From: Planctomycetota bacterium
GTDB taxonomy: Bacteria; Planctomycetota; MHYJ01; WSZJ01
DNA length: 64,000 bases
Direction: 5' to 3'
NCBI GenBank assembly: GCA_009773755.1
Contig: WSZJ01000007.1
Location: forward strand, 3,493-67,492
Shown here: one piece after another, positions 4,283-58,011 of the stretch
How positions within the stretch are numbered: position 1 is the stretch's first letter
How the letters are laid out: the number at the start of each line of letters is the position of its first letter
The notes under the pieces: generated by a model
What the model saw: the letters and a program-made list of their open reading frames with translations, nothing else
The model's database searches: none
What the model was told of the DNA's origin: nothing
Translations under genes and position numbers: made by a program

Positions 4283-5629
4283 CTACTTCGCGAATTCCGA
4301 AAGCGGCCGGTCCACTGCGGACTCCAGGTCCACTCGCGCCGATGCATACGCCGCTTCCGCCTCGATCGACTCGCCCAGGGAGTCGAGGTAGTCCTGCTGC
4401 GCGCGCAGCAGATCGGCGATGCCCAGGTTTCCGTCGGCGTAGGCGGCGCGCACGTCCTCGAGGTTCTTGGAAGCGAGGGGGAGGACTTCTTTCTCGAAGA
4501 GATCGAGAGTCTGCGAAGCGGCCTTGAGCCGGGCGGCGGACGCGGTGACTTCTCTTCCGACTTCGGACTCGAGGGCGGCGCGGAGGGCGTCGAAGCGGCG
4601 GCGGTCGGCCTGGGCTTCGAGAATTTCGCCTCGTTTCGAATTCCAGAGGGGCAGCGTGAGGGAGAGGCCGAATGTCACCATGTGGTCGTTCATGCGGATG
4701 TCGACCCCGTCGCCCTCGACGCGGCCTCGCTCCCATTCGTATCCGAGGCCGAGTCCGAGCTCGGGCGCGCCTTCCGCGTCGGCGAGCGTGGCGCGGGCGC
4801 CGGCTTCGACGGCGGCCTGCGACAGCACGTCCAGATCCGGCCGCCCGGTTCGCGCGGCGGCGAGAGCTTTGGCGAGATCGGGTTCGGGGCGGTCGGCGGG
4901 AAATGTCACGGCGAGGAGCCACCCGGCGGGCGGCGACTCGCCGGCGAGCGCCTCGACATCCGCGCGCGTTGCCTCGACTTCCCCCTCGGCAGACTTCACG
5001 GCGGCGCGCGCCTTCGCGGCGCGGACTTTCGCGGAATTCACGTCGGTCGCGGAAGCCTGGCGGGCGTCGTAACGAGCCACGGCGACCTCGACGTCCTTGG
5101 CGGCGAGCTCGGCGAAGCGGCGCGAGACATCCAGTTTCCGGAGTGCGATGGACGCGTTCCACCAGGCGAGACGCGCCCTGGAGCGGAGCTCGCGCAAGGC
5201 GTCGCGCGCTTCCGCGCCGGCGCGGGCGATCCCGGCTTCCGCCACGGCTTCCCGCTTCGAGAGCCTTCCGCCCAGATCGATCCGCTGGTGAACGCCGATC
5301 CCGGCCTGCGTGCTTTCGCCATCGACGGACTGCGCGCCCTCGAAGGCCACCTCCGGGTAGGACTGGTACGTCCCCGCCGCCACCTTCCGCGCGCGCGCCG
5401 CTTCCCACTCCTCAAGCGCCGCGATCGAGCGCCCGTGGCGCTCCACGGCGCGCAGAAGTTCGGCGAGCGAGAGGCCGTCGGACCAGTCGATCGGGGCGGC
5501 GGGAGGCGGGACCGCGAAATCCCCATGGCCCGTTCTCCAGTCGGGGAGCGGGACCGGGCGGTCCTCGATGGCAGCGCAGCCAGCGAGCGCGAAGAAAAGC
5601 AGGAGCGGGAGGAATCGAGTCGTCATCAT
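4283..5629 (-). CDS. TolC-family outer-membrane efflux lipoprotein (OMF/NodT-CusC-like), copy 1
   Basis: 448 aa with lipobox FALAGC. It has the two-repeat OMF architecture of long Ala/Arg-rich helices, and a C-terminal LLRAQQDYLDS..AEAAYASARVDLESAV block typical of OMFs. The start overlaps the stop of the YHS lipoprotein (AAATGA). Confidence 0.8.
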   Translation of the reverse strand: MMTTRFLPLLLFFALAGCAAIEDRPVPLPDWRTGHGDFAVPPPAAPIDWSDGLSLAELLRAVERHGRSIAALEEWEAARARKVAAGTYQSYPEVAFEGAQSVDGESTQAGIGVHQRIDLGGRLSKREAVAEAGIARAGAEARDALRELRSRARLAWWNASIALRKLDVSRRFAELAAKDVEVAVARYDARQASATDVNSAKVRAAKARAAVKSAEGEVEATRADVEALAGESPPAGWLLAVTFPADRPEPDLAKALAAARTGRPDLDVLSQAAVEAGARATLADAEGAPELGLGLGYEWERGRVEGDGVDIRMNDHMVTFGLSLTLPLWNSKRGEILEAQADRRRFDALRAALESEVGREVTASAARLKAASQTLDLFEKEVLPLASKNLEDVRAAYADGNLGIADLLRAQQDYLDSLGESIEAEAAYASARVDLESAVDRPLSEFAK

Positions 5630-6063
5630 TTGTGGTCGCTCCCTTCGTGGTTGTGACCGTGGCTACCCGATCCGTCCACGGGTTGGGGATCTCCGCACTC
5701 GCACCTCTCCGCCTTGTCCTGGCAATGGCCGCACCCGCAGTGCTTCATGGCGCCCGTGGAGCAAATGCATTTTTCTTTCGGGAGCCCCGTCATCGCGGCC
5801 GAGGGGGCCGCCTTGAACGTGTCGAGGCAGGCGGTCGAGCAGAAGTGAAACCGCGTTTCGCGGTAGACGAATTCCGGCTGTCCGGCGATCGAGAAGAGCT
5901 TTCCGCACGCAGGGTCGCGCGCGCTGCCATCAACGGCGGTCTCCGAGTCTGCGTGCGCGGCGCCCGTGCCGTGATCGTGATCGTCGTGTTCGTTGCTGCT
6001 GCCGCAGCCCGCGATTGCCGCTACGAGCAGCGAAGTTGCGAATTTCACAAGTGATCCGCGCAT
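5626..6063 (-). CDS. YHS/TRASH-domain metal-binding lipoprotein, His/Cys-rich
   Basis: Lipobox AIAGC and an HDDHDH tract. YHS-like core DPACGKLF..YRETRFHFCSTACLDTF. Cys cluster CICSTGAMKHCGCGHCQDKAERCEC. His-rich C-terminal tail GSGSHGHNHEGSDHK. Confidence 0.7.
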   Translation of the reverse strand: MRGSLVKFATSLLVAAIAGCGSSNEHDDHDHGTGAAHADSETAVDGSARDPACGKLFSIAGQPEFVYRETRFHFCSTACLDTFKAAPSAAMTGLPKEKCICSTGAMKHCGCGHCQDKAERCECGDPQPVDGSGSHGHNHEGSDHK

Positions 6064-6091
6064 GAAGGGCTCCTTGCTCCAGGGGGAAAAA

Positions 6092-7311
6092 CTACTTGGG
6101 ACCGCCGCCGACTTTGTACGCCATCGTCCCTTCAGGGTGCTTGTACCAGCCCGGGTCTTCGTAGCTGGTGATGCCGTCGCGCACCTTCAGAATCGTGAAC
6201 ATGCCTCCCATGCCGAGGTTGTCGAAGGGTCCCTTGCCGGTCATCATCGCCAGCGTGTTCTCAGGACCGGGCATGTGATCGGCCATGTCCTGCATTTCGG
6301 CCATTCCCTTCTCTCCCATTGCCATGTATCCGGGGAGCAGCTTCCGGATTCTCCCCTCCAGCCCCTTCTGGTCCACGCCGATCATGTTGGGAACGTGATG
6401 TCCCATCGCGTTCATGACGTGGTGGGATTTGTGGCAGTGGAGGGCCCAGTCCCCCGGGAGGTCGGCGACCCATTCGATGTCGCGCGTGGCTCCGACGGGC
6501 ACGAGGACCGTCGTTTCGGGCCACCCCGCGGACTCCGGAACGTCGCCGCCGTCGGTGCCGGTGACGGTGAAGGATGCTCGTCCATGCTCAAGTTGGCGAT
6601 GCGGATCCGCACGCGCTGGCCGGTTCTGACGACCAGGGGGGCCGTGCCGGGGAACGCCTTGCCGTTGAACGAGAAGGTGTTGAAGTCGAGCATGACGGAA
6701 GGGTCGGGGCGGTACGTCCCCGGTTCGATCGCCCACATGTGCAGGAAGATGGAGAAGTCACGGTCGATTTTCCGCGACGCCTTTTTGGGGTGGATGACGA
6801 ACATGCCCATCATGCCGACCGCCATCTGGGTCATTTCGTCCACGTGCGGGTGGTACATCTGCGTCCCGTGCTGGATCAGGGTGAACTCGTAAGCCCACGT
6901 CTCTCCCGGCTGGATGTACGGTTGCGTCAGCCCGCCCACGCCGTCCATTCCGCAGGGAAGCAGGACGCCGTGCCAGTGGACGCTCGTGGGCTCCGGCAGC
7001 TTGTTCTCCACGAAGATCCGCACCTTGTCGCCTTCCACGCACTCGATGGTCGGCCCCGGCGTTCGCCCGTTGTAGCCCCAGGCCTTCACCTTGCACCCCG
7101 GGGCGAATTCGTGTTCCACTTCCTCGGCAATCAGATGGAATTCCTTCACGCCGTCCTTCATCACGAACGGAAGAGTGGCCCCGTTGGGAGTTTCGACTGG
7201 CGTGTAGCCGTCCGCGGCGGGCGGATCTTCCGCGCGCGCCGTCCCGCCCAGCAGCAGCCCGGCCCCGGCCAGCGCCGCCCCGCCCGTCACGAGCAACTCT
7301 CTTCGCGTCAT
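6092..7311 (-). pseudogene. multicopper oxidase (CopA/CueO-like, Tat signal) with a frameshifting deletion
   Basis: Split between track ORFs 6412..7374 and 6092..6736. Tat motif MTRRELLVTGGAALAGAG. Cu motifs HWHG, HPH and HCHKSHHVMNAM are present. The frame breaks at 6571/6572, where ..ANLSMDEHP joins FTVTGTDGG and the expected HxHxH copper site is missing. Length is 1220 nt, not a multiple of 3. Confidence 0.75.
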
Positions 7312-7353
7312 CACGATCCACCTCCTCTTCGCCGCCTCGATGCTTTGGTTGTT

Positions 7354-7379
7354 CCTACCCACTACCCCCTGCAAACTCC
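7354..7379. repeat. heptamer-periodic CTACCC-type tract
   Basis: The sequence cctaccc actaccc cctgcaa actccct lies in the spacer between the TolC-like copy 2 stop and the MCO start. Confidence 0.55.
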
Positions 7380-8741
7380 CTACTTCTTCTCCCCCGGCAG
7401 CCGTCCTCCCACCGCGCGTTCCAGCTCCGCCCGCGCGATCCAGTAGTCCCTGACCATTTCAATCGACTCGTCGTACGCGTCGTACTCTTCCTGCCGCGCA
7501 CGAAGCACTTCCGCAACGCCGATCAGCATGAAGTTGTATTCCCTGAGCGCGAGTTCCACGATCCGCTCGCGAAGCGGGATTACGACCCTTTGAAGGTGCT
7601 CAGCCTTGCGCCGGTGCGTGAGGAGCCGTTCCCTTGCGGAGCGCACCTCGGAGCGAATCCGGATCGCGAGGTCCCGATTTGTCGACTCGCGCCGCCGGAG
7701 CTCCGCTTCGAGCGCGAATATCGCCGCCTGCTGGCGGTCGAATATCGGAAGACTCAGCGCCAGGCTCGGACCGTACGCCCAGCCGACCTCCGGTTCGAGC
7801 TCCCGATGCGCATCGAATCCCAGCTCGACCGTTCCGAGCCACCGGAACGCCTTCACAAGGTCGAGACGCTCGACAGAAGCGTCTCGCTCCCGCCGGGCCG
7901 CAGCGAGATCGAGACGGCGCGCGATGGCGAGGGACTCGAGCCCGTTCAGCGCGATTTCAGTTCCCGGCATGTCCGGGAGTTTCTTCGGGGCCGTCCACGC
8001 GACCTGGGTTCCCCATGCGCCGAGAATTACCGTCAGGTTCTCCCGCGCCTCGGATACCTGCTCTTCCGCCTTCACCCAGGCCATCTTTGAGCTCTCGGAC
8101 TGGTCGCGCTCCCGCGAGGCCGCAAGCTCGCTCAGATTCCCCGCATCCTTCAACCGCGCCGCCAGGTCGGCCTGTGCTTCCGCCGCCGCAGCAATCGCGT
8201 GGCGAACCTCGGCCCGCTGCTGCGCCGCCACAACCTCGAGCCACGCCACCTTCGCGCGCGCCGCCATCTCGATCACGTCGTCGACGACGTGGAATTTGAC
8301 CCGCTCAAATTCCATCGAAGCGACTTCCTTCCGGGCGGGAATCATCAGCAGGTCGAGAAAATTCTGCGCGATCTCGAAGTCCATTCCCGTGACCACGCCG
8401 GGCCTCGTGGGGAAATGGGCGCTTCCGAAAATCGTCGGATTCGAGAGAATTCCGGCCTGCACGAGGTCGGCCTGGGCGACGCCGAGGTCCTCGTAATGGG
8501 ACTGCAATTCCGGGTTGTTCAAGAGCGCGATCTGCACGACGGATTCCGACGTCAGCTCGCGCGAAAACAATTCGTCGATCGTACGTCGGACCTCCGCGTC
8601 CTCGGGACCGCCCCGGAACCAGTGAACCTTCTTTGCCGTGCGTTCCTCGGCGGGCTTCCGGACGTCCTCAAATCCCGCGTCCTCCGGGACGGAGCAGCCC
8701 GCCAGCACGATCGCCGCTACAGTCGGGAGCCAGGTTTTCAT
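7380..8741 (-). CDS. TolC-family outer-membrane efflux lipoprotein, copy 2
   Basis: 453 aa with lipobox VLAGC and OMF helical repeat architecture. The start overlaps the stop of the HMBD lipoprotein through the same GACCACAAATGA junction as copy 1. Confidence 0.8.
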   Translation of the reverse strand: MKTWLPTVAAIVLAGCSVPEDAGFEDVRKPAEERTAKKVHWFRGGPEDAEVRRTIDELFSRELTSESVVQIALLNNPELQSHYEDLGVAQADLVQAGILSNPTIFGSAHFPTRPGVVTGMDFEIAQNFLDLLMIPARKEVASMEFERVKFHVVDDVIEMAARAKVAWLEVVAAQQRAEVRHAIAAAAEAQADLAARLKDAGNLSELAASRERDQSESSKMAWVKAEEQVSEARENLTVILGAWGTQVAWTAPKKLPDMPGTEIALNGLESLAIARRLDLAAARRERDASVERLDLVKAFRWLGTVELGFDAHRELEPEVGWAYGPSLALSLPIFDRQQAAIFALEAELRRRESTNRDLAIRIRSEVRSARERLLTHRRKAEHLQRVVIPLRERIVELALREYNFMLIGVAEVLRARQEEYDAYDESIEMVRDYWIARAELERAVGGRLPGEKK

Positions 8742-9049
8742 TTGTGGTCATGCCCCTTGTGCTCCCCTGCCGGCGCCTCCTTGACGGGCTGCAGGTCCAT
8801 GCCGCACTTCGGACACGCCCCGGCCTTGGCACTCTTCACTTCAGGATGCATCGGGCAGGTCCACGTCGCGCCCTCGGGCGGCTTCTCATCCGCCAGCGGT
8901 TCCACCGGCCCGCTCAGCCGGTCGGGCGGCGGCGCCCACGCCGTCTCGGGCGCCGCCGGGTTGGCCGGGTCGGTCGCGGATGGCGGCCCGTCGCCGCTTC
9001 CCGCACATCCGGCAAGGGAGGCCAGCAGGACCAGAAACAGGGATTTCAT
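8738..9049 (-). CDS. heavy-metal-binding-domain (HMBD) lipoprotein
   Basis: Lipobox SLAGC. WTCPMHPEVKSAKAGACPKCGMDLQPV matches the YTCPMHPE..CPxCGMxL HMBD motif found at the N-termini of Cu/Ag efflux components. C-terminal tail EHKGHDHK. Confidence 0.75.
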   Translation of the reverse strand: MKSLFLVLLASLAGCAGSGDGPPSATDPANPAAPETAWAPPPDRLSGPVEPLADEKPPEGATWTCPMHPEVKSAKAGACPKCGMDLQPVKEAPAGEHKGHDHK

Positions 9050-11641: not shown

Positions 11642-12940
11642 ATGAATTCTTCCCGCGTCTTTGCTGTCGTGTCCGCGGCCGTGCTTCTCTCGATGGCGCT
11701 CTCGCCCACGAACGCCGGCGACCCCGCCTCCGAGAAGAAGGACAAGGTCAACGACGCGGTCGAGCTGGCCGCGGGATGGCTCTACGACGACCTCCCTGCG
11801 GCCCTTGCGCGCGCGAGGAAGGAGAACAAGCCGATATTCGCCGCGTTCCGGTGAGTGCCCTGAGCGTCGTGCAAGACGTTCGACGGGCAGGTGGCCCGTC
11901 TCGAGGGGGGAATCGGGGACCTGGCGAAGGATTTCGTCTGCGTGCGCGTCATCCAGATGCGCGGGATCGACACTTCCGTGTTCCAGTTCGACTACGACCT
12001 GACCTGGTGCGGGTTTTTCCTGAACGCCGACCTGACGGTCTACGGCCGCTACGGCTCGCGCAACGCGGGGCGCGACAAGTCGGACCAGCTCATGTCCGTG
12101 GACGGGCTCAAGGCCGCCTTGACGAAAGCTCTCGCGCTTCACAAGAACTACCCCGCCAACAAAGCAACGCTCAAGGCCAAGACCGGCAAGCCGTACGCTC
12201 AGAAGCTTCCCGAGACGATGCCCGCGATCGCAGACCAGTTCAAACAGGACGACCTCCCCAAGAAATGCATTCACTGCCACCACGTCTGGCGAGGGATCCG
12301 GCGCACGATGATGAACGCGAAACAGGTCCTGCCGGACACGCTGATCTACCTGTATCCGTTTCCCGACAGCTTTGGAATGCAGATGGAAACTGCCGACGGC
12401 ACGAAAGTTCGCCAGGTCGTGAAGGACTCGATCGCGGACAAGGCCGGCGTAAAGGCGGGGGACGAGGTGGAAGCCGTGAGCGGGACGCCGATCGTGTCGC
12501 TGGCGGACATCCAGTTCATCCTGCAGAACTGTGCCGATAACGAGAATCTCAAGGTTGAAGTGGCGAGAGGCGGGGAAAAAAAGAGCCTGACCGCCAATCT
12601 CTGCGGCGACTGGCGCAAATCGACGGACTTCACGTGGCGCGACTCGTGCTACGACCTGCGCATCGGGTTCCAGAGTGAGGCGCTCACGGCGGACGAGCGG
12701 AAGCAGGCGGGGCTGAAGGACGGCGGGCTCAAGATCAAGCCGATGTACGCGCAGAGTCCGGCGAAGAAGGCCGGGTTCCAGGACGGCGACATTCTCCTGA
12801 GCGTAGGAGGGCAACCGATCCCGGCGACGGAGCGGGAATTCCTTGCGCTGCTGCGGCAGAAGTTCCTGGTAGGCCAGAAACTGAAGTTTGCCCTTCACAG
12901 GGGCGGCAAGAAAACCGACCTCACCATGGACCTGCCATGA
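11642..12940 (+). CDS. periplasmic thioredoxin-fold + 2x PDZ protein, putative selenoprotein with U-V-P-U motif (paralog A)
   Basis: AAGGAG RBS (11628-11633) and ATG at 11642, with a signal peptide. Track ORFs 11633..11854 and 11891..12940 are in the same frame, separated only by TGA (11852-11854) GTG CCC TGA (11861-11863). The TGAs fall where a thioredoxin-like fold has CxxC (..ENKPIFAAFR-U-VP-U-ASCK). Downstream lie a CIHCH motif and two PDZ-like segments (GVKAGDEVEAVSG, AGFQDGDILLSVGG). Confidence 0.7.
11882..11900 (+). promoter_or_regulatory. putative bacterial SECIS hairpin (paralog A)
   Basis: GACGGGC-AGGTG-GCCCGTC is a 7-bp perfect stem with a 5-nt loop containing GGU. The loop begins 25 nt after TGA-2 and 34 nt after TGA-1. 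It covaries with the paralog B hairpin. Confidence 0.6.
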
Positions 12941-13096: not shown

Positions 13097-14392
13097 ATGC
13101 AACGTTCACGCCTCTTCGCCTCAACCGCCCTCGCCGCCCTCCTCGCCACCTTTGCCGCTTCCCGCCTCCCCGCCGGCGACACGCCTGCTGAGAAGCGCGA
13201 CAAGATCAACGACAACACAGAGATCAATCCTTCGTGGATCTACGACGACCTGCCGTCCGCCATTGCGAAGGCCAGGCGCGAGAACAAGCCGATCTTCGCC
13301 GTGTTCCGGTGAGTGCCCTGAGTCAGCTGTAACAAGTTCGACGCGCAGGTGGCGCGTCTCGGCGACGGGCTCGACGAAATCGGGAAGGAATTCGTGCTCA
13401 CGCGGATCATCCAGATGCGCGGCGTCGACACGGCGGTCTTCAATTTCGACTTCGATCTGTCCTGGGCGGGGTTCTTTCTCAATGCCGACCTCACCGTCTA
13501 TGGGCGCTACGGGACGCGCCGGGACGGAGGCGACTCGCAGTACTCGACGAGCGCGCTCAAGGAAGCGATGACGAAGGCGCTCGCGATCCACAAGGCCTAC
13601 CCCGCGAACCGCCCGTCGCTGGCGCCGAAGAACATCAAGGCGTCGAACCTGGGAAAGATGCCCGAGCAGATGCCGGCGATCGAGGTCCAGTTCAGGAACC
13701 CGGACATCCCGCGCAACTGCATTCACTGCCACCACGTCTGGAAGGGCGTCCGGCGCTCCCGCATGGCGGACAAGAAGCCGATGCCCGACAACCTGCTCTG
13801 GGTCTACCCGATGCCGGACACGATCGGCGTCACGATCGACGTCGCGGACGGCGCGAAGATCGCCTCCGTCGCAGCCGGGACGCCCGCGGCGAAGGCCGGC
13901 GCGCAGGCCGGCGACGTCGTGCTTTCCATCAACGGCGCACCGATGTTCTCGATCGCGGATTTCCAGTTCGTGCTTCAGAACTCACCTGACCAGGCCACGC
14001 TCAAGGTGGAAGTCCAGCGGGGAACGGAAACGAAGGTTCTCTCGATCGCGATCTCGGGCGACTGGCGCAAGGCCGCCGACTTCACCTGGCGAACGTCCTG
14101 CGGCGACCTCCGCCTCGGCATGCAGATGGAGTCCCTGAACGACGGCGAGCGCAAGGCCGCCGGCTTGCGCGCGGGCGGAATCAAGGTCAAGAACGCGTGG
14201 CCGAAGGGTCCCGCCGGCATGGCCGGCTTCCAGGCCGGCGACGTGATCGTCGCGCTCAACGGCCAGCCCGTGCCGGACAAGGAAACCGATTTCCTCGCCT
14301 GGATACGCCAGAAATTCCTGCCCGGCCAGAAAATCAAGCTGACGGTCGTGCGCGGTGCAAAGAAGCAGGACATTTCCATGGACGTGCCGTAG
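13097..14392 (+). CDS. periplasmic thioredoxin-fold + 2x PDZ protein, putative selenoprotein with U-V-P-U motif (paralog B)
   Basis: Start at MQRSRLFASTALAALLATFAA (ATG 13097). Track ORFs 12965..13312 and 13349..14392 share a frame, split only by TGA (13310-13312) GTG CCC TGA (13319-13321). The sequence reads ..ENKPIFAVFR-U-VP-U-VSCN. It has the same CIHCH motif and PDZ-like segments as paralog A. Confidence 0.7.
13340..13358 (+). promoter_or_regulatory. putative bacterial SECIS hairpin (paralog B)
   Basis: GACGCGC-AGGTG-GCGCGTC has the same geometry and loop as the paralog A hairpin. The fifth stem pair is C-G instead of G-C. Confidence 0.6.
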
Positions 14393-19362: not shown

Positions 19363-21716
19363 CGCGGAGGCTCCTGGCCGGGCGCGGGGCCGTCAGGTGC
19401 TTCCCCGCCCGGTTCGACTTCGTCCCGGGTTTCGTCGCGCGGCGCGGGGGACGGCGTGTTGTCGTAATTCGACGTCGGACCGGCCGGCTCAAGCACGTCG
19501 CCGGGCAACTCGACGGCCGGCCAGATCGAGTGCAGCAATCGCGCCGCCGTCTTCGCAGGGAGGCCGCTTCCGGCGCCGCCTTCCTCGATCATGACGCAGA
19601 ACGCGTATTTCGGATTATCGAAGGGAGCGTATCCGGCGAACCATCCGTGGTTTTCGCGGCCGCCCTCGGACACGCGGCGGGAGCTGGACTGGGCGGTCGA
19701 GGTCTTTCCCGCGGCCTTGAACAGAAGGAGGCCGCTCGAACGGGCGGTGCCGAAGTCCTCCATGGTGACGGCTTCCAGGCCCTTGCGCAGTGCGGCGAGC
19801 GTCTCCGGTTTGAGCTTCAAGTCCTCGAACCGCACTTCCGCGTCGAGCCTCATCCGCGGCAGGGGAAGTTTGCCCGCCGCAAGTCCCGCCATGAGCCTCG
19901 CGGCCTGAAGCGGCGTCACGAGCATTTCGCCCTGGCCGATCGAAACGTTCAGCGTGTCGGCGAATCCCCACCTTCCGCGGCCCGTGGCGCGGCGCCAGGC
20001 GGGAGTGGGAATCTGTCCTGCTGCTTCGCTGGGAAGGTCGATCCCGGATTTCCGCCCGAGCCCGAAACGGTTGGCCATTTCGGCGATGGCGTCGATTCCG
20101 GCGCGATTCCCGGTCTCGAAAAAGAAGCAGTTGCAGGAGCGCGCCATTCCCTGGCGCAAATCGAGATTTCCGTGCGCGCCGCCGTGCGAATTGATCCAGC
20201 AGGCGAACTTGTTCGGCCACCGGACCGGGTCATACCGGCCGCGGCAGATGAACAGATCGGCGGCCGTGACCTTTCCGGACTCCAGCCCGGCCGCGCCCGT
20301 GACCACCTTGAAGATTGACCCGAGCGGATAGCGGCCGGAGATGGCGCGATTGAGAAGCGGCGCCATGGCTGGATCGTAGAGCAGGTCCATCTCCTCTTTG
20401 CCCATCGGGGGAATGAGCCAGTTCGCGTCGTATCCCGGCGCGCTGGCCAGCACCAGCACGTCGCCGGTCGCGACATCCATGACCACGATCGAGCCGCGGA
20501 GGGCGAGCGGAAGCGAGTCGAGAAGCGATTCGGCTTTTCGCTGAAGGGGCATGTCGAGGGTCAGGGTGACGTCTTTCCCCGGCACGGGCGCGACCCTGTC
20601 GACAATCCACTCGCGCTTCGTCAGGAGATTCTTTGCCCGACGCTCGAACCCGCGCTCGCCGCCAAGGACGTCCTCGTACCAGCGCTCGATACCGGTCCTG
20701 CCGACCCAGTCGCCGTAGAATGCCCCGCGGAACTCCAGGCGTTCGTACTCGGCATCGCTGATCTTGCCTGCGAGAGCGCGGTTCACCCGGTGCGGCCATG
20801 TCTGCCGACGCTTCGCCGGATCTTTCTCTTCCGCCTTTTCTTTCCGGAATGCGAGGTTGTCATCGGAGAGAGAAAGCCCGACTTCGACCCGGAACACCCC
20901 CGCCCTCTCGAAATCCTGGTACTCCTCTTCTCCCATCAGCCCAACGGACCCGACGGCCTGACAGGCCGCGCGTCCGGCCGAGTACACCCGCTTTGTCCGG
21001 GCGCGGATCTCGATACCCGGGAAGGAGCTTTCGTCGATCGCGATATCGCTCATCTGGTCGTAGGTCAGCCCCTGCCAGAGGCGGAAGGGTTGACGCCATT
21101 CCTGCTGGAGGATCCAGCGTCGGTCGCGCGCGCTGACCGGAGGCTTCCCGGGCACGTTGCAGCGCGCGTGCGCCGCGCGGTCAACGGCCTTGAGTTCCCG
21201 TACCGCTTTCACGTACATCTGCGCCGGCTCCGGCCGCGGAAGGACGCCGCCCGATCGAAGCATGGCACCGATCGCCTCCGTGTCCGGCACGACCAGCGTC
21301 CCTCCGTCCGCGCCCAGAAGCGTCTTCACCGGGTACGCCCGTTCACGCAGCATTGTGGCGCACTGCCGTTCGTCGAATCCCGCCCCCGCCCCGGCAAGCC
21401 CCAGCGTGTCGCGCATCACCCGCGCCAGCCGCGCGTAGTCCAGCTCCGGATCGCGACCCTTCACCCGCGGCAACTCAAAATCCGCCAGCACCACGTCCAC
21501 GTCGAAACACCTCTCCTCTGATGCCAGCACCTCCCCGCTCCGGGCGAAGATGTTCCCGCGAGGCGTCGGCACCACTTCCACCCACTCCCTCGTCCAGGCG
21601 CCTCGCGACCGGAACTCTTCCGCGTCGACGATCTGCATCCAGAACAGCCGCGCTTCCAGCGCCGCAAACGGCATCAGGAGGAGAACGCTGAACACCACGA
21701 CGCGCAGCTTTGTCAT
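19359..21716 (-). CDS. mrdA: penicillin-binding protein 2 (elongasome transpeptidase)
   Basis: N-terminal TM anchor. Transpeptidase motifs SIFK (SxxK), SCN(SxN) region and KTST/KTG-like AGKTSTAQ. Its position is between mreD and rodA. It has a Pro/Glu-rich C-terminal extension. Confidence 0.82.
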   Translation of the reverse strand: MTKLRVVVFSVLLLMPFAALEARLFWMQIVDAEEFRSRGAWTREWVEVVPTPRGNIFARSGEVLASEERCFDVDVVLADFELPRVKGRDPELDYARLARVMRDTLGLAGAGAGFDERQCATMLRERAYPVKTLLGADGGTLVVPDTEAIGAMLRSGGVLPRPEPAQMYVKAVRELKAVDRAAHARCNVPGKPPVSARDRRWILQQEWRQPFRLWQGLTYDQMSDIAIDESSFPGIEIRARTKRVYSAGRAACQAVGSVGLMGEEEYQDFERAGVFRVEVGLSLSDDNLAFRKEKAEEKDPAKRRQTWPHRVNRALAGKISDAEYERLEFRGAFYGDWVGRTGIERWYEDVLGGERGFERRAKNLLTKREWIVDRVAPVPGKDVTLTLDMPLQRKAESLLDSLPLALRGSIVVMDVATGDVLVLASAPGYDANWLIPPMGKEEMDLLYDPAMAPLLNRAISGRYPLGSIFKVVTGAAGLESGKVTAADLFICRGRYDPVRWPNKFACWINSHGGAHGNLDLRQGMARSCNCFFFETGNRAGIDAIAEMANRFGLGRKSGIDLPSEAAGQIPTPAWRRATGRGRWGFADTLNVSIGQGEMLVTPLQAARLMAGLAAGKLPLPRMRLDAEVRFEDLKLKPETLAALRKGLEAVTMEDFGTARSSGLLLFKAAGKTSTAQSSSRRVSEGGRENHGWFAGYAPFDNPKYAFCVMIEEGGAGSGLPAKTAARLLHSIWPAVELPGDVLEPAGPTSNYDNTPSPAPRDETRDEVEPGGEAPDGPAPGQEPPR

Positions 21717-22216
21717 GCCAGGAGCTCCCGCTCAGGAGCCCAGCCGGCGATGCCGCGGATTTTCGCGAAAGGTCTCGCGGCGAGCGCCCCGAGTCCGGCG
21801 GTGAGAGCCGCGACGGCGAGCGAGTGCCCGATGCCGTTCCAGAACCCGACCCCGTAGCGCGCCGCCAGCACCATCCCGTAGGGCGCGTGCGCTACCAGCG
21901 CAGCGACGAAGCAACCGATCGCCATCCCGAGCGGGCGCGACGGGAAGAGCATGCCCCGCATGGTGTTCGCGACGAGCGCCGCGAGAAGGAACATCAGCGC
22001 GAACGGCCCGGGACCGCTTCCGCCCGTCAGGTCGCGAAGGAGCCCGAGGGACCAGGCGGCGATGCACGAGGTGTTGCGACCGGTGCGAAGTGCGATGGCC
22101 GCGAGGACGACGATGGCGACGTCAGGGACGGCGCGGCCGATGGCGAACAGCGGGGCGAGCGCGATCTGTGCGATCGTCGCGAGCAAGGCCAGGAAGATGA
22201 AGACGATCCAGTTCAC
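21713..22216 (-). CDS. mreD: rod shape-determining protein MreD
   Basis: 167-aa polytopic membrane protein located between mreC and mrdA, with an ATGA overlap with mrdA. Confidence 0.7.
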   Translation of the reverse strand: MNWIVFIFLALLATIAQIALAPLFAIGRAVPDVAIVVLAAIALRTGRNTSCIAAWSLGLLRDLTGGSGPGPFALMFLLAALVANTMRGMLFPSRPLGMAIGCFVAALVAHAPYGMVLAARYGVGFWNGIGHSLAVAALTAGLGALAARPFAKIRGIAGWAPERELLA

Positions 22217-22237
22217 GTCCGTGTCCTTGGCCGCTGG

Positions 22238-23008
22238 TCACTTTCCCAGGAGTACCAGCACATGCCTGAGGGACGAAGGGTCGACGCGGGGACGGACGAC
22301 GATGTCTCCGTAGACGCCGGCGCCGTTGCCGCTCTTCGCGACTTCACCGATGAGCATCCCCGCGGGCCAGCCGCGATCCGGGTCCGCGACGCTGACGATG
22401 ATCCAGCCTTCGCCGACGGGCTCCCGGTCCAGCACGTATTCGAGTCGGCAGGTTCCGTCGCCGCTTCCCGCGAGGATCCCCGTGACTCCGGCGCCCGCGC
22501 CCTTTTTCACGGCCGCGACTTTCATCCGGAAGGCTGGGTCGCCGACCAGGCGGACGCGGGAGGTCGTTTCGCCGGACTCCAGGACGCGACCGACGACGTT
22601 GGGGCCCTCCGTGACGATCATTCCCTGCTTCACGCCGTCCCGCGTCCCCTTGTCGATCATGACGGTGCCGTGCCACGTCGAGGGATCGTCAGAAAGGAGG
22701 ACCGACGCCGGCAGGACGCGCGGAGAATCCCCGATCGAGGCTTCGCGGTACGCGCTCACCTTCCGGAGTTGCGCTTCGAGCTCCCCGGCCTTGCGCTGCT
22801 GCCGCAGCAACTCCGCGAGCAGTTCGCCGTTTTCTGCCCGCAGGCGCTTGTTCTCGTCTCCGCCGCCGCGCCATTCGGCAAGAGGACGGAGGAGCGCGAA
22901 GGGTGCATAGCGGGGCCCGGCGGGGATCCGCGACTGCGCGAGAATGAGCACTCCCGACGCCAGGGCGAGGGCGATCGGCAAGGTCCAGGTCAGTTTCAGT
23001 CGGCGCAT
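22238..23008 (-). CDS. mreC: rod shape-determining protein MreC
   Basis: N-terminal TM, coiled-coil segment (ENKRLRAENGELLAELLRQQRKAGELEAQLRK) and C-terminal beta domains (VVGRVLE..SRVRLV, GMLIGEV). Confidence 0.85.
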   Translation of the reverse strand: MRRLKLTWTLPIALALASGVLILAQSRIPAGPRYAPFALLRPLAEWRGGGDENKRLRAENGELLAELLRQQRKAGELEAQLRKVSAYREASIGDSPRVLPASVLLSDDPSTWHGTVMIDKGTRDGVKQGMIVTEGPNVVGRVLESGETTSRVRLVGDPAFRMKVAAVKKGAGAGVTGILAGSGDGTCRLEYVLDREPVGEGWIIVSVADPDRGWPAGMLIGEVAKSGNGAGVYGDIVVRPRVDPSSLRHVLVLLGK

Positions 23009-23054
23009 CTAATACGGCGCTCCGAGGCCTTCGTCAAGTGTTGTCATTTTTCAT

Positions 23055-23197
23055 GAACGCGCGAAAGAACCTGGACGGAGAACCGGCCGGGACGCTTCGA
23101 CTCGCCGCGCAAGCACGCCTCGTTCGAGCGAGATCCGCGCCGCGCGGCGGGTCGAAATGTCCCGGCCGGTTCGTAGTCCAGGTTCTTTCGTGCGTTT
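23055..23197. repeat. ~140-nt imperfect palindrome between mreB and mreC
   Basis: The outer arms gaacgcgcgaaagaacctggacggagaaccggccggga (23055-23092) and tcccggccggttcgtagtccaggttctttcgtgcgtt (23160-23196) pair. The inner arms ttcgactcgccgcgc and gcgcggcgggtcgaa also pair. The centre resembles the REP-like family. Confidence 0.75.
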
Positions 23198-24254
23198 AGT
23201 CGATATCAGCGGACGATTCGATGCTGTCGCGCAGCCTGTCGAGGTTGTCGAGGATGACGCCCGTGCCGCGGGCAACCGCGGTGAGCGGGTCATCGGCGAT
23301 GACGACGGGAATGTCGATCTCCCTCGTGATCGCGGTCTTGATGCCGCGCAGAAGCGCTCCTCCGCCTGCGAGCGTGATGCCGCTCTCGACGAGGTCCGCG
23401 CTGATTTCCGGCGGGATGAGCTCGAGCGTTTCCTTGATCGCCTTGACGATCCTCATGATCGGGTCGGAGAGCGCCGAGCGGACCTCGGCCGACGACACGA
23501 TGATGCAGCGCGGCATCGCGGTGACGACGTCTCGGCCGCGGACCTCCATCGTCAGTTCTTTCTCGAGCGGAGCCACGGAACCGATCGTGAGCTTGATCTT
23601 CTCGGCCGTGTTTTCGCCGATGTACAGGTTGTAGTTCTCCTTGCAGTGCTTCATGATCGCGTCGTTGAGCTCGTCCCCCGCGACGCGGATCGACTTGCAC
23701 GCGACGACTGCGCCGAGCGAGAGAACGGCGATTTCCGAAGTCCCGCCGCCGATGTCGACGATCATCGAGCCGCGAGGCTCCTGGATCGGCAGGCCGACGC
23801 CGATGCCCGACGCGATCGGTTCGGGGACGAGGAAGACCTGGCGCGCGCCGGCGCGCTCGGCGCTGGCGAGCACCGCGCGCTTTTCAACGCCGGTGATTCC
23901 GCTCGGGTGAGCCACGATGACGCGCGGACGGAACCAGCCCTTGCGCTTGTGGATCTTCTGGATGAAGTACTTGATCATCGCCTCGGTGATGTCGAAGTCC
24001 GCGATGACGCCGTCCTTCATCGGGCGGATCGCCTCGATGTTCCCGGGACATTTCCCGAGCATTTCCTTGGCGGCCGAGCCGACGGCCTGGCCGTTCATGA
24101 GGATCTGGTTCGTGCCCTTCTTCACCGCTACAACGCTGGGCTCGTTGAGGACGATGCCGGCCCCCCGCACGCAGACCAGCGTATTGCAGGTGCCGAGGTC
24201 GATGCCCATATCGGTGCTGAAGACACCGATGACGCGGTCGATCAGACTGATCAT
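23196..24254 (-). CDS. mreB: rod shape-determining actin homolog MreB
   Basis: Start at MISLIDRVIGVFSTDMGIDLGTCNT (ATG is rc of 24252-24254). The MreB/actin ATPase blocks are present throughout (DIGGGTSEIAV, LAGGGALLRG). Confidence 0.95.
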   Translation of the reverse strand: MISLIDRVIGVFSTDMGIDLGTCNTLVCVRGAGIVLNEPSVVAVKKGTNQILMNGQAVGSAAKEMLGKCPGNIEAIRPMKDGVIADFDITEAMIKYFIQKIHKRKGWFRPRVIVAHPSGITGVEKRAVLASAERAGARQVFLVPEPIASGIGVGLPIQEPRGSMIVDIGGGTSEIAVLSLGAVVACKSIRVAGDELNDAIMKHCKENYNLYIGENTAEKIKLTIGSVAPLEKELTMEVRGRDVVTAMPRCIIVSSAEVRSALSDPIMRIVKAIKETLELIPPEISADLVESGITLAGGGALLRGIKTAITREIDIPVVIADDPLTAVARGTGVILDNLDRLRDSIESSADID

Positions 24255-24353
24255 GGCTATCCCCTCTCCGAGATTGCCTTGTGTCCAGCGCTCGCCTTGC
24301 CCGATCAGGATGGTCGAGCAGAAGCGGACGTCCGCCATGCGGCCGTCGCTATT

Positions 24354-24382
24354 TTTATACTTTATAAAGTATATAATGTCAA
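24354..24382 (-). promoter_or_regulatory. sigma70-type promoter upstream of mreB
   Basis: The minus strand reads TTGACA (24382-24377), a 17-nt spacer, then TATAAA (24359-24354), about 95 nt upstream of the mreB ATG. It lies inside a visibly AT-richer region. Confidence 0.55.
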
Positions 24383-24721
24383 ATTAAGGGACGAGTTGAT
24401 TGGTGACACAACTACATACTGCTAAACAAGTTATGACAATCTCTCGAAATTGAGCGGATTTGCAGCCGGATTCGATACGCCCCTGGGTCTGGTTTCGTCG
24501 CATGGAATAGAGACGCGGCCAAGCGGAATTCGTCTGAATAAGTGTCACTTTTGCTGCGTCGAAATACTGCACACTTCCTACAGCGCACTGCAAGTCAATA
24601 CTAATTAACAACTTACAAATTCATTGTCGATTCGCACAATCTGGCATCAGCATTGCAATACACACTTCCGTCGTACTAAACGAGTAACAAGCACTCAAAC
24701 AACGAAGTCAAGGAGATAGCC

Positions 24722-52880: not shown

Positions 52881-54175
52881 CTAGACCGGCACCACCGTCT
52901 GCACCGGCCGGAACGCCGCCAGCACCCGCTCCAACCTCATCCCCCGGCTCCCCTTCAGCAACGCCAGGTCCCCTTCCCTCAGGATGTCCGGCAGCGCCCG
53001 CGCCGCTTCATCGGCATTCGCAAACGCATGCGCCTCCAGCGTCCGTCTCAGCGTCTTCGCCTTGTGCACCGCGCGCGTCGCTTCCGGCCCGATCCCCACG
53101 AACACGCCCAGATTCGGCGTGCGCGCGACGCGGTCCCCGATCTTCTCGTGCAGCTTCGCCGACTCGCTTCCCAGCTCCAGCATGTCGCCGAAGATGAACA
53201 CGCGGCGCCGCGCGTCCCACAACTCGATCTCGTCGAGCGCGAGCGTCACGGCGCGCGGGTTGGCGTTGTACGCGTCGTTCACGAACTGCACGCCGGCAAG
53301 CTCGATCCGCTCCATCCGCATCGGCGGAAGCCGGAACGACATCAGCCGCTCGGCGATCTGCATCATGTCCAACCCCATCGTCAGGCCGACGGAAGCGGCG
53401 GCGAGGGCGTTGTACGCCATCCAGCGGCCGCAGATCGGGAGGACGAACGGGACGCGGTCCAGCGCGCGGTCGTCGCGCGCGACATCCGCTTCGTGTGCTC
53501 GTTGTCCATGTTCAGCACGGCCGTGCCGTTGTTCGCAAGCTTCTCGACCAGCGCGGCCTTCTCGCGGGCGATGGCGTCGATCGTGCCGAACCCTTCGAGG
53601 TGCGTTTCGCTGACCGTCGTGACGACGCTGACGTTCGGCTGCGCAATCCCCGCGAGATAGGCGATTTCGCCGGGGGCCGAAGTGCCGCACTCGACTACGA
53701 CGACGTCGGTTTCCTTGTCGATGCCGAGAAGGGTGATCGGGAGGCCGAGGTGATTGTTGTAGGACTTCTGGGAAGCGAGGACGGTTCGATCCGCGCCGAG
53801 GACGTGCGCGATCATGTCCTTGGCGGTGGTTTTTCCGTTCGAGCCGGTCACGGCGACGACGGGGACGCCCGACTTCGACCGGATCCGCTTAGCCAGGTCG
53901 CCGAGCGCCGCAACGGAATCCCGGACGCGCATCACGTTGCCGCGGCGGACCTTTTCGATCTCGCGGTCGACGATGACGGCCGAAGCGCCCTTTGAGAGCG
54001 CCTCCTGCACGAAGTCGTGCCCGTCCTGGTTGCGGCCGCGGATGGCGAAGAAGAGGTCGCCCTTCCTGACGGCGCGCGAATCGGTCTGGGCGCCCGTCGC
54101 TTCGCCGCCGCCGGTTCCGTGGACGAACTCTCCGTTCAGGACGGACTTGAGTTCGGACAGTTCGATCGGCAGCAT
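52881..54175 (-). pseudogene. murF: UDP-N-acetylmuramoyl-tripeptide--D-alanyl-D-alanine ligase with apparent frameshift
   Basis: Split between track ORFs 53381..54175 (..VAVTGSNGKTT..LNMDNEHT) and 52881..53690 (ADVARDD..LPICGRWMAYNALAA..DAYNANP..GDMLELG). The frames switch near 53489-53494. Total length is 1295 nt, not a multiple of 3. This may be a sequencing or assembly error rather than a true pseudogene. Confidence 0.7.
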
Positions 54176-54202
54176 GTTGCGAACCTCCCCGATGTTTTTA
54201 TT

Positions 54203-55669
54203 TCAAGCCAACGCCGGCAGCCGCCGGCCCAGGAACTCCGCCGCCACCGCACGGTCGTCGAACGGCTTCACCCCGTCCTTGAAGATCTGGTAGGTCTCGT
54301 GCCCCTTGCCGGCGATCAGCACGGTGTCGCCGGAACGCGCTTCCCGAAGCGCCTTGCGGATCGCTTCCCGCCGGTCCGGCTCGACCATGCGCGGCGCTTC
54401 CCTGGGAAGTCCCGCGAGGACGTCGTCGAGGATCCGGAGAGGGTCCTCAGTGCGCGGGTTGTCGCTCGTGACGACGGCGAGGTCCGCGTATTGCGCGCAG
54501 GCCTTCGCCATCATGGGGCGCTTCCCCTTGTCGCGGTCGCCGCCGCAGCCGAAGACGCAGATGAGGCGCCCCGGCGTGAGGGGCCGGAGCGCGGTGAGGA
54601 CGTTGACGAGGGCGTCGTCGGTGTGGGCGTAGTCGACGAGGACGGCGAAGGGCTGGCCGCAGCGGACGGGCTCGAGGCGGCCGCGGACGAAGGAGCATGC
54701 GGCGGCGCCGTCGCGGAGGGCGTCGGGGTCGAGGCCCATGCCTTCGAGGCAGGCGATCGCGCCGAGGACGTTCTGGACGTTGTGGCGGCCGACGAGCGGC
54801 GAGAAGACGGGGCCTTCGAAGCCGGCGGCGCGGAGGAAGAAGCGGGTGCCGTCGAGCGTCGTCGAATGGACTTCGGCGCGGACTTTCGCGGCGGGCGAGA
54901 GGCCGAAGGTCGCGGCGGGGACCGCGGAGGCTTCCGCCATGTATGCGCCGTAAGGGTCGTCGACGTTGACCGCGGCTGCGGCCCCGGGCTTGAGCCCGCG
55001 GAAAAGCAGCGCCTTGGCGTCGCGGTAGTGCTCCATCGTCCTGTGGTAGTCCAGGTGGTCGCGCGTGAGGTTCGTGAAGATCGCGCCGCCGAACTCGATC
55101 CCGGCGATGCGGCCCTGGTGAAGCGCGTGGGACGAGACTTCCATGACGCAGTGCGTCAACCCGATCCGCACCATCTCCGCGAACATCTCCTGCAGCTCGA
55201 CCGGCCCGGGCGTCGTGTTGTCGGCCGGAATGTCCCGCCGCCCGAACTGGTAGCTGATCGTCCCCAGCAGCCCGCACTTCGCTCCCGCCGCGTTCAGCAT
55301 CGCGCGGATGAGGTGCGTCGTGGTGGTCTTGCCGTTGGTCCCCGTGACGCCCACGACCTGAAGCCTGCGCGAAGGGTTCCCGTGGAATTCCGCCGCGAGC
55401 CGCGACGCCGCGTCGCGCGCATCGGCCACGACCGCCTGCGGCCGCCCGAACGGCAGCTCGAGTTTTTTCGAAGCGACCACCGCGACCGCGCCATTCTCGA
55501 GCGCCGAAATCGCGTACTTCGCGCCGTCGTCTTTCACCCCCGGGATCGCGACGAAAACCCACCCCGGGCGCACTTTGCGCGAGTCGGCCGTGACGCCGAG
55601 AACCTCGGCGTCCTTGAAGAGCGACCACGAAGCGCCCGAAAGCGCCGCGCGCAATTTCAAGAGTTTCAC
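54203..55669 (-). CDS. murE: UDP-N-acetylmuramoyl-L-alanyl-D-glutamate--2,6-diaminopimelate ligase
   Basis: Blocks VTGTNGKTTT, DYAHTDDAL, GCGGDRDKGKRP and DNPR are present. GTG start. Confidence 0.9.
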   Translation of the reverse strand: MKLLKLRAALSGASWSLFKDAEVLGVTADSRKVRPGWVFVAIPGVKDDGAKYAISALENGAVAVVASKKLELPFGRPQAVVADARDAASRLAAEFHGNPSRRLQVVGVTGTNGKTTTTHLIRAMLNAAGAKCGLLGTISYQFGRRDIPADNTTPGPVELQEMFAEMVRIGLTHCVMEVSSHALHQGRIAGIEFGGAIFTNLTRDHLDYHRTMEHYRDAKALLFRGLKPGAAAAVNVDDPYGAYMAEASAVPAATFGLSPAAKVRAEVHSTTLDGTRFFLRAAGFEGPVFSPLVGRHNVQNVLGAIACLEGMGLDPDALRDGAAACSFVRGRLEPVRCGQPFAVLVDYAHTDDALVNVLTALRPLTPGRLICVFGCGGDRDKGKRPMMAKACAQYADLAVVTSDNPRTEDPLRILDDVLAGLPREAPRMVEPDRREAIRKALREARSGDTVLIAGKGHETYQIFKDGVKPFDDRAVAAEFLGRRLPALA

Positions 55670-55706
55670 AACCCCTCTCCTTAGCCGGTTCCGAGGCCGG
55701 CGTCCG

Positions 55707-55753
55707 TCGTCCTCTCCCGTCTCCCGTCTCAGAACTCCCGACTGCTCTACTCG
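55707..55753. repeat. heptamer-periodic NNNCTCC tract
   Basis: The sequence cgtcctctcc cgtctcc cgtctca gaactcc cgactgc tctactc lies in the ftsI-murE spacer. Confidence 0.5.
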
Positions 55754-55805
55754 CCCAGCAACATCGCCGCTTCCGCCAGCGTTTCCCAGATCGCCACAAG
55801 CACTC

Positions 55806-57593: not shown

Positions 57594-57629
57594 CGTAGTG
57601 CTCCGGGGTGCGGCGTCGTCGGTGGAAAG

Positions 57630-57665
57630 GCAGTGAGTAGTGGGTAGGAGGTAGGGGGTAGTTCT
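57630..57665. repeat. heptamer-periodic GGTAG-family tract
   Basis: The sequence gcagtgagt agtgggt aggaggt agggggt agttc lies in the ftsL-ftsI spacer. It is in inverted orientation relative to the tract at 58031-58064 on the other side of ftsL. Confidence 0.65.
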
Positions 57666-57678
57666 TGTCGGCGATCCG

Positions 57679-58011
57679 TCAGGGTCTTCCGGGATTCCTT
57701 GCGTCTACGACTCGTTCACCGAACTGCGGGGCCGCCTGGCCGGGCTTCAGGACACGCCAGTCCTGCGGCACCGCGAGAACCACGCCCAGCGCCGTCGCGC
57801 GCTCCATGAGCGCCGCCGGCGCCTTGCACCGTCCGACCTCGGCTTCCAGCCGCCGCCGCTCGCGTTCCAGCTCCGCGAGCCGTTGCTCGCGATCGCGGAT
57901 CCAGTACCCGAGGCGAAGCGTCTCCGCCTGCTGCCAAACGGTGAGCAGCCCGACAAGCAGGAACAACGCGACGAGAAGGATGGGCCGTGAAGTCTTCAAG
58001 TCATCTCCCAT
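57679..58011 (-). CDS. ftsL: FtsL-like cell division protein
   Basis: 110 aa with a single TM (ILLVALFLLVGLLTVW) followed by a coiled coil (REQRLAELERERRRLEAEV). Canonical position between rsmH and ftsI. Confidence 0.6.
   Translation of the reverse strand: MGDDLKTSRPILLVALFLLVGLLTVWQQAETLRLGYWIRDREQRLAELERERRRLEAEVGRCKAPAALMERATALGVVLAVPQDWRVLKPGQAAPQFGERVVDARNPGRP

Follow-up and report, generated by a model that had tools for sequence, protein, structure and literature searches.

One hairpin for two UGA codons: candidate shared SECIS elements in tandem Trx7/PDZ selenoprotein genes of a Planctomycetota bacterium

In the Escherichia coli paradigm, the UGA codon and the hairpin of the selenocysteine insertion sequence (SECIS) have to lie a fixed distance apart for bacterial insertion of selenocysteine (Sec). 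Two tandem paralogous genes, here called A and B, in a 64-kb stretch of a Planctomycetota contig (WSZJ01000007.1, positions 3,493 to 67,492; hereafter the window, whose numbering is used throughout) each contain two in-frame TGA codons followed by one hairpin, and raise the question of how a single element could relate to both codons. A comparison across the Trx7/PDZ family to which both genes belong makes it likely, in our assessment, that the hairpins at 11882-11900 and 13340-13358 are the SECIS elements of the two genes and that each serves both of its UGAs. Taken separately, the hairpin is very probably a selenocysteine-insertion signal, and the use of one SECIS by both UGA codons is the most likely arrangement.

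Two TGA codons and one hairpin in genes A and B

Gene A occupies positions 11642-12940 of the plus strand, from an ATG at 11642 to a stop codon at 12938-12940 (432 codons plus stop), and gene B occupies 13097-14392 of the same strand (ATG 13097, stop 14390-14392; 431 codons plus stop); the two proteins are 54% identical. With the TGAs replaced by Cys before scoring, the products reach 378 bits (A) and 366 bits (B) over profile positions 2-389 of 390 in the NCBIfam model NF041199, "Trx7/PDZ domain-containing (seleno)protein", which has a curated cut-off of 300 bits. The Pfam matches in both proteins (PF13899, PF13180 and PF17820) correspond to a Thioredoxin_7 domain and two PDZ domains. In the gene A product these are accompanied by an N-terminal hydrophobic leader, the motif R-U-V-P-U within the Thioredoxin_7 domain, and a CIHCH motif.

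The in-frame TGAs of gene A lie at 11852-11854 and 11861-11863, and those of gene B, located by translation and motif alignment, at 13310-13312 and 13319-13321, all on the plus strand. Each pair is two codons apart in the context F-R-TGA-V-P-TGA. Full-length Cys-type homologs have R-C-[V/I/P]-P-C at the exact place of R-TGA-V-P-TGA, and therefore both cysteines of the redox CxxC motif are replaced by TGAs: the first TGA aligns with the first Cys, and the second with the second Cys, which is Sec in the catalogued CxxU form of the family. Upstream of the TGAs, substitutions relative to the orthologs in four related loci (L001, L002, L004 and L006) are mainly at third codon positions, with 5, 2 and 15 differences from L001 at the three positions for gene A and 3, 3 and 14 for gene B, so the frame that enters both TGAs is translated and under purifying selection. 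The public protein records contain only the C-terminal part of each product, namely P0001 (349 aa, 11891-12940, from GTG 11891) and P0008 (347 aa, 13349-14392, from GTG 13349). Both records start inside the hairpin, and the leader, the thioredoxin-like N-terminus and both Sec codons are left out. Many database homologs of ~350 aa look similarly shortened at the N-terminus.

The candidate SECIS hairpins are located on the plus strand at 11882-11900 in gene A (GACGGGC-AGGUG-GCCCGUC) and at 13340-13358 in gene B (GACGCGC-AGGUG-GCGCGUC). The original prediction had described them as perfect 7-bp stems with the loop AGGTG, whose fifth pair differs (G-C in gene A, C-G in gene B) by a Gly-to-Ala change in the 5' arm and a synonymous Ala change in the 3' arm. 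The sequence bears this out: all pairs are Watson-Crick, and the codons concerned are GGG (Gly) and GCC (Ala) in gene A versus GCG (Ala) and GCG (Ala) in gene B. The distances given there, 25 nt from the second TGA and 34 nt from the first to the start of the loop, were likewise obtained by measurement in both genes, and 18 nt separate the second TGA, and 27 nt the first, from the start of the helix, which has no bulge.

On its own, the 19-nt hairpin folds at -12.7 kcal/mol (A) and -11.9 kcal/mol (B). Folding of the 69-nt context relative to shuffles (z = -2.1 in gene A, -0.04 in gene B) is unremarkable for DNA of 66% GC, and the case for a SECIS therefore rests on comparison and not on thermodynamics. 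Perfect hairpins with a 7-bp stem and a 5-nt loop occur 13 times in the window, compared with ~7 in mononucleotide shuffles, and two of these are the A and B hairpins, at homologous positions. The hairpin lies outside the curated RNA family models, since Rfam gave no real match: the whole window had none at the gathering threshold, and relaxing the cut-off to E = 10 between 11600 and 13500 yielded just two matches at chance level, one with a long non-coding RNA model and one with a small nucleolar RNA model.

The consensus used by bSECISearch, taken from the legend of Figure 2 in PMC13188914, comprises an upper stem of 4-16 bp capped by an apical loop of 3-9 nt, in which position 1 or 2 is a G that is usually followed by G or U, a UGA-to-loop distance of 16-37 nt, and a minimum free energy (MFE) of -7.5 kcal/mol or lower (PMC13188914). 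The hairpins of both genes agree with this bacterial SECIS (bSECIS) model in every one of these respects and for both TGAs: the loop has 5 nt and the stem 7 bp, the loop reads A-G-G-U-G, the distances of 25 and 34 nt both lie within the range, and the energies given above are below the limit. As in functional SECIS elements, the UGA aligns with a Cys of the homologs and the hairpin is present only alongside the UGA. Relatives with the loop AGGUU could form an eighth A-U pair, leaving a loop of 3 nt.

The SECIS of E. coli fdhF is likewise a coding-region hairpin shortly 3' of the UGA with GGU in its apical loop. In fdhF the GGU is preceded by CA (GCAGGUCUGC), and the hairpin in the window has the same context of CA and GGU (GGCAGGUGGCC). 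However, the minimal fdhF stem-loop begins 11 nt after the UGA and contains a bulged U in the upper stem, whereas the stem in the window is a perfect helix that begins 18 and 27 nt after the second and first UGA, respectively.

Conservation of the hairpin across the family

The family, for which over 1,500 homologs are on record, was sampled in 80 loci from species-representative genomes and 80 loci from metagenomes, which contain 159 family copies, and the seven stem pairs were scored in every copy at a fixed homologous offset from the motif. The copies comprise 64 CxxC, 58 CxxU and 37 UxxU forms and no UxxC form. All seven pairs are present in 52 of the 58 CxxU copies and in 30 of the 37 UxxU copies (minimum 5/7), whereas the CxxC copies have five pairs at most and mostly three or four. 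The Sec-type copies together have 7/7 pairs in 82 of 95 cases and at least 5/7 in all 95, with zero indels between motif and hairpin and hence a constant spacing. Loss of the hairpin from orthologs that keep their TGAs, the outcome that the original prediction had named as speaking against it, is therefore not what the family shows: the hairpin is found at a constant offset in 95/95 copies.

Among the 89 distinct Sec-type sequences, 97% of the stem cells are paired. Compensatory variants are frequent at pair 35-45 (AU 45, GC 32, CG 7, UA 2), while pair 33-47 switches from CG to UA, accompanied by an Arg-to-His change, and pair 34-46 switches once from GC to CG. The pairing signal is lost when the 3' arm is shifted by 1-3 columns, and loop columns G39 and T41 (U41) are invariant. 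Synonymous sites are constrained as well. The Gln codon is CAG in 88/88 Sec forms versus 17/30 Cys forms, the Asp codon is GAC in 85/89 Sec forms versus 36/63 Cys forms, and the Arg codon is CGT in 78/86 Sec forms versus none of the 9 listed Cys-form Arg codons, all of which are CGC. The covariation that had been suggested from two paralogs is thus extended to the family by compensatory pairs and synonymous-site constraint, and the consensus structure recovered by RNAalifold is the SECIS hairpin only. We also considered, and rejected, the hairpin as a by-product of the peptide D-G/A-Q-V-A-R-L, since Cys forms encoding QVVRR lack the stem and the synonymous codons differ.

One tandem pair, in locus L003 (3139 and 4973), contains an A-type copy with CPPC and 2/7 stem pairs next to a UxxU copy with 7/7, and we interpret the former as a natural case in which Sec reverted to Cys and the SECIS decayed.

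Two further observations concern individual copies. Four CxxU copies (L039, L054, L062 and L160), with GTTCGCG or GTCCGCG as the 3' arm, have 5/7 pairs in the fixed register; by eye, moving their 5' arm by one base gives a 7-bp stem with a bulged A, reminiscent of the bulged U in the E. coli element. The Cys-type copy around 2717 of L135 has an in-frame TAG seven codons past the CxxC motif (LDE*VMQ), which probably reflects either a sequencing error or a pseudogene.

In a rough neighbor-joining tree without support values, the CxxC, CxxU and UxxU forms are interleaved, with ~20 state changes, and a first-position TGA is found only in copies that already have the second-position TGA. Because the states interleave, the first-position TGA was probably gained or lost repeatedly while the hairpin remained unchanged. 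Planctomycetota and Poribacteria contribute most of the UxxU forms, and Verrucomicrobiota most of the CxxU forms. Average hairpin stability is ~1.2 kcal/mol greater in the UxxU than in the CxxU forms, in a comparison that allows for the GC content of the genes and ignores kinship.

Decoding of the upstream UGA

In the mechanism that we favor, SelB-GTP with Sec-tRNA(Sec) would bind the apical loop through its invariant G..U (AGGUG here), and the loop-bound SelB would deliver the tRNA to the UGA in the ribosomal A site. The family-wide UGA-to-loop distance is 25 nt, corresponding to the second UGA in genes A and B and to the sole UGA in their CxxU relatives. Members of the UxxU lineage also have TGA in place of the first Cys codon, 9 nt further 5', and this upstream UGA would most likely be served by the same hairpin at 34 nt. 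The exported protein would then carry U-V-P-U instead of C-x-x-C, probably as a diselenide.

A single shared SECIS is favored because the CxxU and UxxU forms share one hairpin and one spacing and have no second conserved element; neither RNAalifold nor fixed-register pairing found a second conserved RNA structure. The original prediction had proposed such a single SECIS and called it mechanistically unusual. The comparison supports the proposal itself, while its anomaly is smaller than implied, since 25 and 34 nt both fall inside the 16-37 nt range of the bacterial model, and the arrangement is not new in kind, with precedents in SelL and the [NiFeSe] hydrogenases discussed below.

Several results weigh against this explanation. 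A tRNA scan of the window returned no tRNA genes and hence no tRNA-Sec, selA, selB and selD were not found in an NCBIfam scan of ten long open reading frames (ORFs) of the window, and a tRNA scan of 52 related loci gave only two tRNA-Val genes and neither tRNA-Sec nor tRNA-ReC. In E. coli, SECIS function tolerates little change in spacing. Since UxxC is absent (0/159), decoding at the first position is never seen alone in the Trx7/PDZ family. In addition, the UxxU and CxxU forms are split by phylum, and lineage-specific factors such as the properties of SelB may matter.

One alternative accepts the hairpin as a true SECIS and places Sec at the second UGA only, with Cys inserted at the first either by a non-canonical, SelB-dependent tRNA, tRNA-ReC (selC*), or through near-cognate read-through, which would give a mature protein that is functionally CxxU. 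It draws on the hydrogenase study, in which tRNA-ReC reads UGA as Cys using SelB and the SECIS, tRNA-ReC-like genes are found in ~56% of the genomes with UXXU hydrogenases versus ~2.3% of other Sec-type genomes, and one or both UGAs possibly encode Cys where tRNA-ReC occurs (PMC13582414). Within the Trx7/PDZ family, the catalogued CxxU form also favors Sec at the second UGA only, and the spacing of 34 nt is close to the upper limit of the bSECIS model. We nevertheless regard this alternative as unlikely. The first-position TGA is kept in 37 copies over many branches of the tree, with ~20 state changes, and a TGA retained in so many scattered copies is hard to defend as a mere costly code for Cys; the scan of the window found no tRNA genes of any kind; and reading the first UGA as Cys would still rely on one hairpin for both UGAs.

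A second alternative is suggested by the spacer between the second TGA and the SECIS. In gene A a mini-hairpin of putative role at 11862-11881 on the plus strand (GAGCGUC-GUGCAA-GACGUUC, 7 bp, -9.4 kcal/mol) directly adjoins the SECIS hairpin, and it is also present in the A orthologs of L001 and L002. More generally, the 18-nt spacer of the UxxU forms tends to form a small hairpin centered on a conserved Cys codon, often with a GNRA tetraloop (L001, L002, L005, L020, L055, L099, L128 and others). A 20-nt spacer segment has a mean MFE of -5.0 kcal/mol and a mean z of -1.6 versus shuffles in the UxxU forms, compared with -2.4 kcal/mol and -0.1 in the CxxU forms and -3.6 kcal/mol and 0.0 in the CxxC forms. 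GNRA tetraloops closed by at least 3 bp are found in 14/37 UxxU, 3/58 CxxU and 1/64 CxxC copies.

These patterns could mean that two RNA elements cooperate, the spacer mini-hairpin (11862-11881 in gene A) aiding the decoding of the first UGA. In one version the spacer is collapsible: with the first UGA in the A site, the mini-hairpin would be folded outside the ribosome and would draw the SECIS nearer, and it would be melted for the second UGA. In another, the mini-hairpin would be an auxiliary contact for SelB or the ribosome. Stronger spacer folding in UxxU forms speaks for cooperation, as the difference persists after de-replication (p = 5.5e-4 with 23 vs 21 clusters; p = 0.016 with 13 vs 9), and a paired nearest-neighbor test gives p = 0.006 over 23 pairs. 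The same test, however, weakens to p = 0.056 if no CxxU partner is allowed to recur, and the contrast between UxxU and CxxU is confounded with phylum. Pairing in a single register reaches 58% of the spacer cells in UxxU versus 49% in CxxU, and as a conventional conserved structure the mini-hairpin was rejected, with just 51-58% pairing in two fixed registers. Its loops (GCAA, GCGA or UGCA) are at odds with the G[G/U] that the bSECIS model calls for, and in gene A the loop starts 14 nt after the first UGA, short of the model minimum of 16 nt. The mini-hairpin is also not required, because gene B and its whole lineage lack it (-1.4 kcal/mol in B, range -1.4 to -3.7). We hold cooperation of the two elements to be improbable as an explanation of how the first UGA is decoded.

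The broader proposal of a two-part signal, in which the SECIS and a collapsible, often GNRA-capped spacer hairpin would give both UGAs a similar effective distance, seems to us rather doubtful. The folded mini-hairpin would shorten the stretch between the ribosome entrance and the SECIS at the upstream UGA and would be unwound three codons later. The evidence for such a role of the spacer at the upstream UGA is suggestive only.

The weakest alternative, that the hairpin arises by chance or from the peptide D-G/A-Q-V-A-R-L and the TGAs are real stops in a pseudogene or in two ORFs per locus, agrees with the public annotation of the downstream parts from GTG 11891 and GTG 13349 and with the 69-nt context of gene B folding no better than shuffles (z = -0.04), but it is extremely improbable and is already contradicted by the comparative data, in which Cys homologs with the same or a similar peptide (e.g. 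QVVRR) have no stem, synonymous codons are fixed in TGA forms only, purifying selection acts on the upstream frame, the TGAs occupy the alignment positions of the catalytic Cys pair in a single-chain protein, and the frame is kept in 95 independent TGA-bearing copies.

Genomic neighborhood, related selenoproteins and significance

Besides the thioredoxin motif, both proteins have the sequence C-I-H-C-H, encoded at 12266-12280 in gene A and at 13718-13732 in gene B, in which C209, C212 and H213 are invariant or nearly so across the family alignment. It fits CXXCH, the form of c-type heme attachment sites, and the protein has what looks like an export leader.

Elsewhere in the window, the NCBIfam scan of the ten long ORFs identified TolC-like proteins, a multicopper-oxidase-like protein, MreB, Lnt, MoeA and others. 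An apparent metal-resistance cluster precedes the selenoprotein genes on the minus strand (4286-9049). It comprises two TolC-family outer-membrane proteins (4286-5662 and 7383-8747), a multicopper-oxidase-like protein (6415-7458), and a small lipoprotein with a metal-binding-type motif, CPMHPE...CPKCGM (8738-9049); a link between this cluster and the exported selenoproteins is speculative. Apparent cell-shape and cell-wall clusters are found, also on the minus strand, at 21713-24383 and 53381-57704, with mreB (23199-24383) identified by NCBIfam, and with putative mreC/mreD (21713-23008) and putative murE/murF (53381-55834) recognized from translations alone. Pairs of same-frame ORFs split by a TGA on the minus strand (22238, 35969, 54203 and 62392) were considered as further selenoprotein candidates and rejected, their translations reading as ordinary gene junctions, for instance those of the putative mreC/mreD and murE/murF.

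The closest known relatives are the CxxU members of NF041199, with which genes A and B share the layout of a Thioredoxin_7 domain and two PDZ domains, the position of the second Sec, and the SECIS offset. They differ in the Sec motif: a 2026 inventory lists this family as CxxU with one Sec, whereas A and B, with two TGAs each, and 37/95 of the sampled Sec-type copies are UxxU. The motif CxxU was reported in a "putative secreted serine protease MucD" selenoprotein of the GOS (Global Ocean Sampling) survey (PMC2398784). As far as can be told from the citation of that survey in the 2026 inventory, the MucD-like protein belongs to the NF041199 family and is its first report.

Prokaryotic UxxU motifs are catalogued in the same inventory for Prx-like/SelL proteins, a putative mercuric reductase and FmdB. 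In SelL a single SECIS acts on both UGAs of the UxxU motif (PMC4989117). SelL thus resembles the proteins described here: it has a thioredoxin fold, its redox motif contains two Sec residues with two residues between them, and it has one SECIS. It differs in belonging to another protein family that has no PDZ domains, and the best-characterized SelL genes are eukaryotic, with the SECIS in the 3'-untranslated region. Shchedrina and colleagues reportedly described the bacterial SelL SECIS, in 2007, as also being a single coding-region element. The Pfam scan of the A and B proteins gave no AhpC-TSA/Prx match, and their nearest solved thioredoxin-like relative by sequence is AGR2.

A bacterial precedent is provided by the group 4 [NiFeSe] hydrogenases, for which one downstream SECIS has been proposed to control both UGAs, and which have CXXC, CXXU and UXXU variants, a mosaic phylogeny, and a SECIS architecture common to the CXXU and UXXU forms (PMC13582414). 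Their cysteines are metal ligands of a cytoplasmic enzyme, in contrast to the redox CxxC of an exported thioredoxin-like protein in the Trx7/PDZ family. UXXC forms also occur among the hydrogenases (4/47; PMC13582414), compared with 0/159 here.

Genes A and B are a two-Sec variant of a known selenoprotein family and not a new kind of system, and the gain is incremental, since the general idea of a UxxU motif served by a single SECIS is known from publications on other families. What is new here, judging from sequence comparison, is that the UxxU form is common in the Trx7/PDZ family (37/95 of the sampled Sec-type copies) and that the comparative support for a shared SECIS is unusually clean. 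Prokaryotic proteins predicted to carry a UxxU (diselenide) motif, so far few, gain another family and with it an exported thioredoxin-like scaffold. The work also exposes the shortened public records of both genes, which are cut at the second TGA.

Two UGAs 9 nt apart with one hairpin constitute a test of how rigid the distance rule for Sec insertion is. The Trx7/PDZ family offers a clean series for this purpose, with Cys-Cys, Cys-Sec and Sec-Sec forms in many lineages, no indels between motif and hairpin, and frequent switches between the states, and it is therefore usable for the design of reporters. If the two-part signal were true, the switches among CxxC, CxxU and UxxU at fixed geometry would represent a natural experiment on the distance rule of Sec insertion.

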